A stretch of 64,000 nucleotides of DNA from an archaeon (GTDB taxonomy: Archaea > Nanobdellota > Nanobdellia > Pacearchaeales > GW2011-AR1). A program made the translations under genes and the position numbers. Numbering within the stretch: position 1 is the stretch's first letter; the number at the start of each line of letters is the position of its first letter. Below are positions 59 to 56,793 of this stretch, piece by piece. The notes beneath the pieces were generated by a model. That model saw only the letters and a program-made list of their open reading frames with translations. It did not search any database and had not been told where the DNA came from. The DNA is taken from the NCBI GenBank assembly GCA_043810865.1, contig JBDRNS010000005.1, positions 2,821-66,820 on the forward strand, read 5' to 3'.

Positions 59-1777
59 ATGAAAACAGATTATGAGCCATTCAAAATCGGAACTGTATTC
101 AATCCCATTCCAATAAAAGTGAAGAATAATTTTCCCGTTTTAAAGTCGGTGGAGGTTTTATTCCCGAGCAGATTAAATGCGATGGCAATAGATCCGGGCA
201 GAATTGCAAGCAACAAGAATATGGTTTATTCTGCAGGAGAAATAGTTTTCTCACTTCCGATTTTTAAAAGAATTAAAGTCAATGTAATCTCTTCTAGAGA
301 TGTTGTCATATCTGAAAATTCGAGGAGAAAACCTCTTATCAGACACGCATTTTTGATAATGAAAAAAGCAATAAGTTTTGATAACGGATTGTATATCGAA
401 GTGGAAAATTCTGGAGAAGTTAAACATCAAGGGCTTGGTTCAAGCAGCAGTTTATTAGCGGGTGTTTGTGCAGCAATAAATGAAATTTACGGGTGTCCTA
501 TCAACCAAAAAGAATTATTAAAATATGTCGCCCAAAATCACGGAGAGGAAATTGAAGGAAATAATTCAGAATTAAATCCTGTGCAGTGTATTGGTGGTTC
601 AGCAGCATCGGGGCTTTATGAGGGAGGGGTTATATTGGTTCTTGGGAAGAATTTAGTTGCAAAAACCGCAAATATTCCTCAAGATTATTCAATAGTTTTA
701 GGTTTCCCAAAAGATTTTAAAGAAATTGATTCAAAAGTGGCTCTTGAAAAAGAGTTCGAAAATATAAATAATTTTATTGAATGCGGTAAAAAATATGGAG
801 AAACCAATGCTTATAATGTTTTACATAAATTTATTCCTGCGATGATTGAATCAGACATTGAGAAGATGGGAGAGGTGATATATGATTATAGGTATAATAT
901 GGGTAGTATAAAAAATTGTTCATTTCTTTATCCAAAATTAGTTCAGGTTTGCGATAAGGTATCAATTCTTAAAAAAGAGAGGTATGCTTCGATATTATCC
1001 ATCTCCTCTGTCGGGCCATTAATATTCGCGATAACTAAAAATCCAGAAAAATGCCAAGAAATTTTTGAAAAAGAAAATCTAAAAACAGAAATATTTCAAG
1101 TATACAATGGGAAATACAGAGTAGTAAACTTTCTTAGATACGAAGATGTTTTTTGGGATGAACAATCTTCTTTTTTTTCAGATAAGCTTCCCTGTAATCA
1201 TATAATCAAAATCTTAAAAAAGTTTGATAAAAGAAAAGGCAACAAGCTTTTGGATGTCGGATGTGGGGGAGGAAGAAATTTGATATCTAGACTGGGGGAA
1301 GGTTTTGATGTTTATGGGATAGATTATTCTAATTCTATGATAAAGAAAGTCCGACAAAAACTAAGCAAGCATTTTTCTTTAGAAGAGATAAAAAAAAGAA
1401 TACTCAAGAAAAATATCTTCAGTTTATCTGAAATCGACGAAAAGTTTAATGTTGTTATTGCTTCAGGAATAATTCACCAGGCTAAATCGAAAAAAGAGCT
1501 AAAGGAAATAATTTTTTTACTGGCTAATGCACTCAAAAGGGAAGGGATTTTAGTCGGCAATTTATTTACTTCAGATTATTTGGATTCTGAAATGAATTGT
1601 ATTGGTGAGAATGTTTATATTACAAAAGAAGGTTTGTATATGACCCTTGTCACAAAAGACGAATTTTTGGAAATTTGTAAGGAGAATGGACTTTATCCAA
1701 AAACTTTCCAGGAAGAAATAAAGGATGTAGGTACAGGAAAGAGAGCAATCCTCCGTTTTGAACTGGAGAAATTTTAA
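59..1777 (+). CDS. Two-domain protein: N-terminal GHMP-kinase-fold domain (beta-RFAP-synthase-like) fused to a C-terminal class I SAM-dependent methyltransferase
   Basis: N-terminal 'FPSRLNAMAIDPGRI' and 'GLGSSSSLLAGVCAA' (GHMP motif II) then 'GGSAASGL'; C-terminal 'LDVGCGGGRN' SAM-binding motif I; 572-aa ORF. Confidence 0.5.
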   Translation: MKTDYEPFKIGTVFNPIPIKVKNNFPVLKSVEVLFPSRLNAMAIDPGRIASNKNMVYSAGEIVFSLPIFKRIKVNVISSRDVVISENSRRKPLIRHAFLIMKKAISFDNGLYIEVENSGEVKHQGLGSSSSLLAGVCAAINEIYGCPINQKELLKYVAQNHGEEIEGNNSELNPVQCIGGSAASGLYEGGVILVLGKNLVAKTANIPQDYSIVLGFPKDFKEIDSKVALEKEFENINNFIECGKKYGETNAYNVLHKFIPAMIESDIEKMGEVIYDYRYNMGSIKNCSFLYPKLVQVCDKVSILKKERYASILSISSVGPLIFAITKNPEKCQEIFEKENLKTEIFQVYNGKYRVVNFLRYEDVFWDEQSSFFSDKLPCNHIIKILKKFDKRKGNKLLDVGCGGGRNLISRLGEGFDVYGIDYSNSMIKKVRQKLSKHFSLEEIKKRILKKNIFSLSEIDEKFNVVIASGIIHQAKSKKELKEIIFLLANALKREGILVGNLFTSDYLDSEMNCIGENVYITKEGLYMTLVTKDEFLEICKENGLYPKTFQEEIKDVGTGKRAILRFELEKF

Positions 1778-2359: not shown

Positions 2360-2656
2360 GCGAAAATATTTTCTTGAAGTTATATAAGGTTTTTGTTTTG
2401 GGTGGAATTTTGATTTTTATTTGCGTTCGCCAAAGCCAAGATAAATTCTTTCAGAATTTAGTATCGGTGCTCACGATTATTGACCTAGTTCCGTTTTATA
2501 TTTTCGACAAGGAAGGAATTTCGCTAAAAAAGTTTTAGTGCAATAATTTTCTAATCAATATCTGAACGAGAGGAAGGAAATTAAAAGCGAGCCGAAGGCG
2601 AGCTAAATTAATGCCCCCAAATTTTTATAAACTTGTTCTTATGTTTTATTTTATCA

Positions 2657-2859
2657 GCCCCAATCGCATAAGGGTATTGCACAAGATTGGAAAGCAGAAC
2701 CGAGGTTCCGCACCTCCTATGAATAAGAAAAGTTCAGCAGGAACGCACCTCCTATTGGTGAAAGGGGGTTCGGCGCCCAAAGAAACTACAATAGTTTCCG
2801 AGAGAAAAACAAACATCTTGGTCCGCAAGGACATCCAGGTTCGAGTCCTGGTTGGGGCG
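2657..2859 (+). tRNA. tRNA-Ser (anticodon GGA), type II long variable arm, interrupted by an intron of about 122 nt (2693-2814)
   Basis: 7-bp acceptor GCCCCAA/TTGGGGC; D-arm GCAT-AAGGGTA-TTGC; anticodon stem CAAGA/TCTTG; loop TTGGAA|A gives anticodon GGA; variable arm GTCC-GCAA-GGAC; T-arm CCAGG-TTCGAGT-CCTGG; discriminator G; poly-T follows. Intron boundaries approximate. Confidence 0.55.
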
Positions 2860-2868
2860 TTTTTGAAA

Positions 2869-3432
2869 ATGGAAAAAGATTACAAAAAAGAATTTATTGA
2901 AATAATTAAAAATGATAATTTTTTGACTGAACTGTTAAAAATAGTCAGGGAACTTGATTTGCCTGATTGGTTTGTTGTTGCAGGAGTTGTCAGGAACAGG
3001 GTTTGGGATTTTCTGCATGGATATGGGCAAAATACCGAACTGAGAGATGTTGATGTTATTTATTTTGATAATTCCAAGTTTAATTCTGAAGAAGATAAAA
3101 GAATTGAAAAGAAACTAAGAGAAAAAAGAAATGATATAGAATGGGATGTTTTTAATCAAGCCCGAAGACATCTTAAAAATCAGAAAAGTGTAAATTCTTC
3201 TGAAGAGGCACTTTTTTATTATAGTGAGACAGCTAATTGCATTGGTGTGAGGTTAAACAAAGACGGCAGTTTTTTTGTTTGTGCTCCTTACGGTTTTGAG
3301 GACTTGATGAATTTGATAGTTAAGCCAGTTCCAGAACCTTATCAGAACATGGAGTTGTTTAATTTGAGAACAAAAGAAAAAGGATGGTTTGAAAAGTGGC
3401 CGAAATTGAAATTAATTACTTCACCACAATAA
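2869..3432 (+). CDS. nucleotidyltransferase family protein (NTP_transf_6-like)
   Basis: 'WFVVAGVVRNRVWDFLHGYG' and 'DVDVIYFD' motifs; start taken at the internal Met (MEKDYKK) because the upstream part of the ORF is the tRNA gene. Confidence 0.45.
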   Translation: MEKDYKKEFIEIIKNDNFLTELLKIVRELDLPDWFVVAGVVRNRVWDFLHGYGQNTELRDVDVIYFDNSKFNSEEDKRIEKKLREKRNDIEWDVFNQARRHLKNQKSVNSSEEALFYYSETANCIGVRLNKDGSFFVCAPYGFEDLMNLIVKPVPEPYQNMELFNLRTKEKGWFEKWPKLKLITSPQ

Positions 3433-49056: not shown

Positions 49057-49178
49057 CGCCCCGACCAGGAATCGAACCTGGATGTCCAAAAGGACCGCGA
49101 GTTCAGTGCAGTTCTTAGAAGGTGCGGAACCTCGGTTCTGCGTTCGAGTCGCGTGCAGTACCATTGTGCCATCGGGGC
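49057..49178 (-). tRNA. tRNA-Ser (anticodon CGA), type II, with about 41-nt intron (49102-49142)
   Basis: Acceptor GCCCCGA/TCGGGGC, anticodon stem CGCGA/TCGCG, loop CTCGAA|C, variable arm GTCC-TTTT-GGAC, T-arm CCAGG-TTCGATT-CCTGG, discriminator G; intron has central GCAG/CTGC helix (BHB-like). Confidence 0.6.
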
Positions 49179-56632: not shown

Positions 56633-56703
56633 ATGGTCCTAGGAGGAGTCGAACCTCCCCTTCCTCGGTGTAAACGAGGTGTTCTACCGATAGACTATAG
56701 GAC
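56633..56703 (-). tRNA. tRNA-Val (anticodon TAC)
   Basis: Acceptor GGTCCTA/TAGGACC, anticodon arm CCTCG-TTTACAC-CGAGG, T-arm GGAGG-TTCGACT-CCTCC, discriminator A; 71 nt, no intron. Confidence 0.7.
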
Positions 56704-56793
56704 CTTAAAAGTAAAATTGTTTATCTGTTAAAAAGGTTTTCTGTCACCACTCTTTCCCAAAAACTTTTAAAGGGTTCTTCTCCTTGATTTATC

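Follow-up and report, generated by a model that had tools for sequence, protein, structure and literature searches.

A tRNA-Ser(GGA) gene of a DPANN archaeon with a long 37/38 intron at a relaxed splice junction, and a short intron module that recurs outside tRNA genes

In the canonical archaeal tRNA intron, which lies between nucleotides 37 and 38, nucleotides 32–35 pair with the four intron bases preceding a 3-nt bulge that ends in nucleotide 38. The other bulge is made of nucleotides 36 and 37 and the first base of the intron. Here we describe a tRNA-Ser(GGA) gene with a 122-nt intron at this position in a 64-kb stretch of archaeal DNA (the window, meaning the whole 64,000 nt analysed), together with a 24-nt module at the 5′ end of the intron that also occurs outside tRNA genes. 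The intron shares with canonical introns cut by the endonuclease EndA the position, the 3-nt bulges on opposite strands, the helix between nucleotides 32–35 and the intron 3′ end, and an archaeal host. It differs from them in a central helix of effectively 3 bp and in an inner helix that does not close the whole intron but forms a local hairpin at a multi-branch junction. A different class of element, the bacterial REP/MITE type (repetitive extragenic palindromic sequences and miniature inverted-repeat transposable elements), consists of palindromic intergenic repeats.

Archaeal tRNA introns have been described as ‘less than 100 nt’ (PMC4033280) and as 11–129 nt long, with medians of 12–25 nt against the 122 nt found here (PMC4090602). 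The tRNA-Trp(CCA) intron of Euryarchaeota, with its nested box C/D sRNA, is likewise a long archaeal intron at 37/38, but the window intron has no detectable C/D boxes or guide function, and its length is made up by duplication and mosaic assembly. Families of intron ‘transposition’ in Thermoproteales (Fujishima et al. 2010), as far as they are presented in PMC4033280 and PMC4090602, likewise show near-identical intron sequences in tRNAs of different identity, within and between genomes. Set against those accounts, the cases here are from DPANN archaea, all lie at the canonical position and share the 5′ module alone and not the whole intron, and the module of the window type is also found outside tRNA genes and outside Archaea. 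Transcripts of Mimiviridae end at hairpin-forming palindromes (PMC4402537). The copies of our module in giant viruses are similar to these palindromes and to REP/MITE repeats in being multicopy, in lying just after stop codons and in forming convergent inverted pairs, whereas both copies in the window lie in tRNA introns, with a predicted structural role at the splice site. DPANN archaea, including Pacearchaeota and Woesearchaeota, have an α4-type EndA with an extra L3 loop, which is associated with more disrupted tRNA genes, and their tRNA sets are left incomplete by standard prediction (PMC5829648).

A tRNA-Ser(GGA) gene missed by default prediction

When introns of up to 250 nt were allowed, ARAGORN called a tRNA-Ser(gga) with a 122-nt intron at 2657–2859 of the forward strand (‘tggaa-Intron-atctt’), and a rerun on the whole window agreed. 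Removal of the insert between nucleotides 37 and 38 restored a complete cloverleaf, as seen with ARAGORN on the precursor and on the 81-mer spliced in silico. The spliced molecule is a type II tRNA with a 7-bp acceptor stem, a 3-bp D stem, the anticodon stem CAAGA/TCTTG, a 14-nt variable arm, a CCAGG/CCTGG T arm and a G discriminator. The CCA end is not encoded. An earlier note on this DNA had given the same tRNA identity, exon boundaries, intron length and 37/38 position, and the intron mode of ARAGORN places all of them exactly there. We consider it very probable that 2657–2859 is a functional tRNA-Ser(GGA) gene, with a relaxed-type 37/38 intron that is spliced by EndA and has been lengthened by partial duplication and mosaic assembly (Table 1).

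The gene was not called by ARAGORN with default settings or by Rfam at the gathering threshold. These found only two tRNAs in the window, a tRNA-Val at 56634–56704(−) and an intron-containing tRNA at 49057–49178(−). A permissive Rfam search of positions 2500–3000 gave an 18.7-bit tRNA-like match over 2785–2859 only, and the rest was noise. The GenBank annotation does not contain the tRNA-Ser(GGA) gene either. Instead, the deposited coding sequence (CDS) of a nucleotidyltransferase begins at an ATG at 2719, within the intron, and reads through exon 2. The deposited protein (‘MAG: ... [archaeon]’, MAG standing for metagenome-assembled genome) has 237 residues and is identical over 237/237 of them to the translation of 2719–3432. 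The Pfam domain PF06042 spans residues 25–181 of a shorter, 187-residue form, and homologues are approximately 190 residues long; the start is therefore likely to be the ATG at 2869. The annotated N-terminal extension from 2719 is an artefact of the missed tRNA, which agrees with the earlier note.

The ATG at 2719 shares the reading frame of the gene and is used by the deposited protein, as would be expected if this region coded for the N-terminal 50 residues of the nucleotidyltransferase. The extension, however, reads through a perfect tRNA 3′ half, and a start at 2869 agrees with both the Pfam domain and the homologues. Nor does a self-splicing group I intron fit: its catalytic core is missing, 122 nt leaves too little room for one, the usual length being more than 200 nt, and no Rfam intron family was matched at gathering or permissive thresholds. 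We reject these two readings and give them next to no credence. What we see is a real tRNA-Ser gene that escapes the default finders and the deposited annotation, which extends a protein by 50 residues into the tRNA. This is one concrete reason for the incomplete tRNA sets of DPANN archaea (PMC5829648), and the remedy is intron-aware scanning with a raised length limit.

A relaxed splice junction typical of the lineage

The earlier note had found no partner for a bulge–helix–bulge (BHB) motif at the 3′ junction. This has to be corrected: in the constrained fold, ACAA at 2809–2812 pairs with U32, U33 and G34. The resulting motif is relaxed, with a 3-bp central helix and a G·A mismatch between two 3-nt bulges. 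That the motif would be relaxed rather than strict had been anticipated in the same note, and the constrained fold and a comparison of junctions both bear this out. For the comparison, we took all distinct intron-containing tRNAs of the gathered DPANN loci (34 introns with 14 anticodons) and used junction sequences of fixed length. Loci are given below by handles such as L007 where they have to be told apart.

In the canonical register, 92.8% of the cells are paired, against 31–50% when the partner is slid by 1–3 columns. The observed covariation score was reached by none of 500 shuffles. Pair 32:−3 is formed in all 34 introns (UA in 21, CG in 13) and pair 33:−4 in 33; pair 34:−5 is formed in 31, with compensatory changes, and pair 35:−6 in 17. 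Compensatory changes are seen at three of the four pairs of the central helix, and across the 34 introns the junction register covaries with the anticodon. The window intron thus has the two 3-nt bulges, the short helix between them and the register covarying among relatives that make up the relaxed motif. Because pair 35:−6 holds in just half of the introns, the geometry of the window, three base pairs plus G·A, is the common form in the lineage. A relaxed junction as the norm of the lineage fits the published L3-loop EndA and the disruption of tRNA genes (PMC5829648). In the lineage, the working splice motif has a central helix of 3 bp and, beside the 5′ bulge, a local hairpin, which defines a substrate on which this enzyme can be tested.

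We propose the following course of events. The TATA-like box upstream would start transcription, and the T run would end it. The precursor would have, after the anticodon stem, the 3-nt bulge A2813 C2814 / A2815 and then the short central helix (U32-A2812, U33-A2811 and G34-C2810, with G35·A2809 unpaired). The second 3-nt bulge, A36 A37 / A2693, would come next on the other strand, followed by a hairpin that we call P1 (2694–2711). EndA would cleave within both bulges, an RtcB-type ligase would join the exons, and CCA would be added later. The length of the intron is a product of its history, with the 3′ segment supplying the strand that pairs with the anticodon loop, and the excised intron probably has no further function.

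Several observations weigh against this picture. The junction falls short of the strict helix–bulge–helix–bulge–helix (hBHBh′) motif, having three central pairs and not four. P1 is a local hairpin, its 3′ strand lying 97 nt from the 3′ strand of the central helix, which puts the 5′ splice site at a multi-branch junction. The unconstrained minimum free energy (MFE) structure of the 203-nt precursor lacks the anticodon arm; at −68.4 kcal mol−1 (z = −3.4) it beats the fold with cloverleaf and junction, at −64.0 kcal mol−1, by 4.4 kcal mol−1. It is also possible that a second, intronless tRNA-Ser(GGA) gene lies elsewhere in the genome, the analysis covering the 64-kb window.

The lack of a strict BHB motif and the more stable non-tRNA fold would suit a pseudogene, in which a repeat element had landed in the anticodon loop and grown by duplication, leaving a precursor that cannot be spliced. 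The same can be said of the occurrence of the 5′ module as a dispersed repeat outside tRNAs and of the existence of intronless orthologues. Both exons are intact, however, and exon 1 shows 100% identity with its counterpart in functional-looking orthologues, namely the intronless genes of L005, L009, L022 and L032 and the gene of L007 with its 161-nt intron. The identity with the exon of intronless orthologues indicates that the gene body is under selection. The same relaxed geometry, with three base pairs and a mismatch at 35:−6, occurs in 17 of the 34 related introns, and the strand that pairs with U32 U33 G34 has been retained. The TATA-like box and the T run are present, and an intron of this kind also interrupts the only other tRNA-Ser gene of the window. 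Given intact exons and a geometry found in half of the related introns, we regard a pseudogene as improbable and keep to a functional gene with a spliced intron.

The 3′ exon common to both tRNA-Ser genes of the window was matched at 33 loci in a scan of species-representative genomes, and all 33 belong to MAGs of Pacearchaeota, Woesearchaeota or Nanoarchaeota, which places the source among the DPANN archaea of this group. The window itself encodes an aIF5B-type IF2, gyrase A/B and class I aminoacyl-tRNA synthetases, and its GC content is 33–39%. It also has, at 59–1777(+), an ORF of 572 aa in which an N-terminal GHMP-kinase domain is joined to a SAM-dependent methyltransferase domain at the C terminus. 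Related tRNA-Ser genes whose exons are identical or almost so have introns of 0, 15, 26, 35, 36, 41, 49, 55 and 58–60 nt, and longer ones of 73, 74, 80, 90, 97 and 161 nt occur at the same position. The presence and length of the intron are highly fluid in the lineage. The longest belongs to a tRNA-Ser(GGA) gene of the Nanoarchaeota MAG H14-bin003_1 (L007:1195–1436(+)) and exceeds the published 11–129 nt; in a tRNA-Ser(CGA) gene of this MAG (L004), the intron measures 90 nt.

The second tRNA-Ser gene of the window, tRNA-Ser(CGA), has a 41-nt intron whose central helix in the canonical register consists of one pair only (C32-G). It forms a GCAG/CUGC inner helix instead. When the splice sites were slid along a GAAC direct repeat, no register exceeded a 1-bp central helix. 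As GAAC is repeated at both junctions, the predicted cut sites could slide without a change in the product.

The mosaic make-up of the intron

The window intron is a mosaic of the 24-nt 5′ module, a partial tandem duplicate of it together with a degenerate inverted copy, and a 41-nt 3′ segment. The internal duplication had been seen in the earlier note. The 12-nt repeat CGCACCTCCTAT is present exactly at 2709–2720 and 2744–2755, and with up to one mismatch it has three matches in the whole window against 0.04 expected. It belongs to a partial duplication of the intron 5′ end, as the duplicated stretch reads AGCAG-AACCGAGGTTC-CGCACCTCCTAT at 2693–2720 and AGCAG-GAA-CGCACCTCCTAT at 2736–2755. 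A GC hairpin, GGGGGTTCGGCGCCC, also given in the same note, lies at 2764–2778 and folds locally in the constrained fold; in the unconstrained MFE structure, AGGGGGTTCGGCGCC pairs long-range with GGTTCCGCACCTCCT. The last 41 nt of the intron, which comprise a further hairpin (P3) and the strand pairing with the anticodon loop, are approximately 80% identical to the end of the L007 intron, whereas the 5′ parts of the two introns are unrelated.

With its 122 nt, the intron lies near the top of the published range (PMC4090602). The description of it as unusually long, given earlier, calls for some qualification, the L007 intron being longer still; the window intron is long, and neither unique nor the longest. 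A suggestion that it might host a box C/D-like guide RNA, as the archaeal tRNA-Trp intron does, found no support. The length lies within the range of C/D-containing tRNA-Trp introns (PMC4090602). Nevertheless, no C box (RUGAUGA, UGAUGA, UGAUG or their one-mismatch forms) and no D box (CUGA) occurs anywhere in the intron, and no Rfam snoRNA or sRNA matched even at E≤10. We reject such a guide on the evidence of the sequence and hold it to be very improbable.

The related introns follow a common plan. The 5′ bulge is followed by P1, a short linker, a pyrimidine tract (ACCUCC, CUUCC or UCUCC) and a loop or insert; then come a purine partner (GGAGG-like) adjoining the central helix and the 3′ bulge. 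P1 hairpins begin at intron nucleotide 2–3 in nearly all of the longer related introns, and their sequences vary by genome. In L028 and L034, P1 is longer on both strands (GCAGAAGAACC...GGTTCTTCCGC), as expected for a real helix.

Table 1. Features of the tRNA-Ser(GGA) locus, its neighbouring gene and the sister tRNA-Ser gene in the window.
Feature	Position	Strand	Remarks
TATA-box-like TTTTTATAAA	2622–2631	+	approximately 26–35 nt upstream of the tRNA 5′ end; putative promoter, judged from sequence
Exon 1	2657–2692	+	acceptor 5′ strand, D arm, anticodon stem 5′ strand (2682–2686)
Anticodon loop of exon 1	U32 U33 2687–2688; anticodon GGA 2689–2691; A37 2692	+	ARAGORN intron mode
Intron, 122 nt, canonical 37/38 position	2693–2814	+	ARAGORN; junction geometry backed by covariation in 34 related introns
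5′ bulge	A36 A37 / A2693	+	hairpin P1 (2694–2711) begins right after it
5′ module GCAGAACCGAGGTTCCGCACCTCC	2694–2717	+	hairpin P1, then CCUCC tract
Hairpin P1, GCAGAACC-GA-GGUUCCGC, with A·C mismatch	2694–2711	+	inner helix next to the 5′ bulge; constrained fold
Partial module copy 2, AGCAGGAA-CGCACCTCCTAT	2736–2755	+	hairpin core deleted; holds repeat copy 2 (2744–2755)
AGGGGGTTCGGCGCC, degenerate inverted copy of GGTTCCGCACCTCCT (2704–2718)	2763–2777	+	long-range partner or local GC hairpin
Hairpin P3, GAAACUA-CAA-UAGUUUC	2782–2798	+	in all folds
Central helix 3′ strand, ACAA	2809–2812	+	U32-A2812, U33-A2811, G34-C2810 paired; G35·A2809 unpaired
3′ bulge	A2813 C2814 / A2815	+	3′ splice site between 2814 and 2815
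Exon 2	2815–2859	+	A38, anticodon stem 3′ strand 2816–2820, variable arm 2821–2834 (14 nt)
Exon 2, remainder	T arm 2835–2851; acceptor 3′ strand 2852–2858; discriminator G 2859	+	ARAGORN
TTTTT run	2860–2864	+	abuts the tRNA 3′ end; putative archaeal terminator, judged from sequence
NTP_transf_6 nucleotidyltransferase gene	2869–3432	+	likely true start ATG 2869, 187 aa; outside the RNA
tRNA-Ser(CGA) sister gene	49057–49178	−	Rfam tRNA, 41.6 bits; ARAGORN; alignment
Parts of tRNA-Ser(CGA)	exon 1 49178–49143; intron 49142–49102 (41 nt); exon 2 49101–49057	−	module at 49141–49118

Exact-protein look-ups of the neighbouring nucleotidyltransferase gene and of P0001 matched no contigs. A 59%-identical homologue lies on contig L001, where synteny is not conserved.

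The 5′ module within and outside tRNA genes

That the 5′ module is common to both tRNA-Ser genes of the window and widespread elsewhere is not in the earlier note. The form of the module is G-CAGAACC-loop-GGTTCCGCACCTCC (first 24 nt, 2694–2717). An exact 22-mer is present in the introns of tRNA-Ser(GGA) and tRNA-Ser(CGA), with 0 expected by chance. In a pairwise alignment counted by hand, identities between the two genes amount to 75% in the 36-nt 5′ exons (27/36) and to 90% in the first 31 intron positions (28/31). The window has only these two copies of the module.

A metagenome scan with CAGAACC-N(2-9)-GGTTCCGCACCTYC gave at least 163 occurrences on at least 120 contigs. Among the matches listed, eight lie within tRNA calls on the same strand, in introns of tRNA-Ala, Arg, Asn, Gly, Thr and Ser, and these always start at intron nucleotide 2–3 (A37 / N-G-CAGAACC). 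Module variants are often common to different tRNAs of one genome, for example to the Ser and Gly tRNAs of L031. Highly similar intron sequence across tRNA identities, the mark of a transposed or shared intron family, is therefore present here. Layouts with a hairpin plus CCUCC also occur in Asp, Gly(GCC) and Pro introns. Overall, 38 of the 77 tRNAs of the gathered DPANN loci have introns, in a sample that is biased by the choice of loci. The module offers a specific sequence for studying the gain and movement of archaeal tRNA introns, the mechanism of which has been described as unknown (PMC4090602). A second shared intron start, ATGCCCAACTT...GTTCGG[C/T]GCTCA, was observed in the tRNA-Gly(GCC) intron of L022 and the tRNA-Ser(GGA) intron of L007, which are different MAGs. 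This suggests that the lineage has more than one family of intron modules.

Outside tRNA genes, three kinds of contigs carry the module. The first are AT-rich freshwater contigs, which encode MutS beside a family-B DNA polymerase, a collagen-repeat protein and an EsV-1-7 repeat protein, and which hold many copies of the AAAATTGA octamer. In a viral contig collection, the module was found on contigs named GVMAG (giant-virus MAGs), one of which has approximately 10 copies over 223 kb. The giant-virus contigs carry multiple intergenic copies of the module; 49 follow a stop codon on their own strand and 16 follow one on the opposite strand. Module pairs are convergent in 16 cases and divergent in 4, and the inverted pairs bound units of 77–435 bp. 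The flanks of 16 inverted-repeat units showed no consistent target-site duplication, and a limited look at the contigs examined revealed no transposase. The module may resemble the terminal repeat of IS5, but the outer end of the giant-virus unit is the CAGAACC side, which is the wrong orientation. Other short GC-rich palindromic modules, such as GTAGGGGCAAGCCCCTAC, GAAGCTTCCAGCTTCACCGG and TGCAACGGATCT, are intermixed on giant-virus contigs (L044, L068, L078, L118, L157–L181 and others). Tandem arrays were seen in L103 (31-nt period) and L120 (38-nt period).

The second kind are high-GC contigs, which are bacterial, as they encode TypA and a LolCE-like permease. Here (L046, L058, L061, L063, L065, L097 and others), the module sits inside a repeat of over 250 nt whose near-identical copies start behind stop codons, and a CGCGA...ACGCG stem around a GC hairpin follows the module. 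This repeat has no Rfam match. Distant copies of it retain just the hairpin, CACCUCC and the subsequent stem. The third kind are low-GC, DPANN-like contigs, on which the modules outside tRNAs lie after stop codons. In L060, L100 and L102, the module sits in the 3′ end of a gene, before the next gene, and encodes a QNQGSAPP tail; judged by its sequence, the gene looks like that of ribosomal protein uL22. The 23-nt module is identical in these three gene ends, while the flanking codons have diverged.

The viral contigs are nearly devoid of variants with a perfectly paired stem (1 and 0, against 26 of the module). The exact module sequence, including the A·C mismatch, is what persists. Rfam gave no family at the module in 17 module-bearing loci at the gathering threshold and in 5 at E≤1, and a full-text literature search with the module sequence and its complement returned no paper. 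Two candidates for a conserved fold, a T-loop-like hairpin (GAGG/CCUC around UUCCGCA) and an h45-like hairpin (GUAGG/CCUAC), were rejected, as each forms in some loop variants only.

The module resembles approximately the last 30 nt of 16S rRNA, GAACCUGCGGUU ... CACCUCCUU, that is, the 3′ strand of h45 and the anti-Shine–Dalgarno tail (L155:80–113; E. coli rrsH). When aligned with the last 33 nt of E. coli 16S rRNA, none of 2000 shuffles did as well as the giant-virus module with its flank (GTAGGCAGAACCTGCGGTT-CCGCACCTCCCTA), and the module copy of the window matches the E. coli 16S 3′ end with p of approximately 0.003 by shuffles. Both comparisons are post hoc, so that the likeness is a lead and not a result.

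The intron could be spliced normally and still have a function of its own. It might then persist as a stable, probably circular RNA whose two CACCUCCU tracts mimic the anti-Shine–Dalgarno end of 16S rRNA, or provide a site for a factor that binds the 16S 3′ end. Such a function would be compatible with the gene being functional and spliced as proposed above. It would account for a module that is better conserved between the two tRNA-Ser genes than their exons and that stays identical at the three uL22-like gene ends. The near absence of perfect-stem variants, the 16S likeness and the recurrence of CCUCC-type tracts in the introns of many tRNAs point the same way. In most of the related introns, however, the CCUCC tract finds a GGAGG-like partner within the intron, beside the central helix, so that a purely structural role suffices. 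Moreover, the tract is variable (CUUCC, UCUCC, CCCUCC), many orthologues have no intron at all, and the 16S comparison was made after the fact. On balance, we think a separate function of the intron rather unlikely.

The spread of the module has three possible accounts: a structural module moving between tRNA genes, a REP/MITE-like repeat surviving in 3′ untranslated regions and spliceable introns, or an RNA mimic of the 16S 3′ end. We put forward only tentatively, and with more doubt than confidence, that the module is a cross-domain, sequence-constrained element similar to the 3′ end of small-subunit rRNA, which seeded or reshaped DPANN tRNA introns by supplying the inner helix of the splice site. 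If true, such seeding would tie the spread of tRNA introns in archaea, so far unexplained, to a definite repeat element. As a tRNA intron, the window intron is a long representative of a type already known; what sets it apart is the splice geometry of the lineage together with a 5′ module shared across domains. One further copy of the module abuts a tRNA gene on the opposite strand in L047, and an RT-16 RNA (Rfam RF03019, 79 bits) lies approximately 1 kb away from it, at L047:8874–9010(+).

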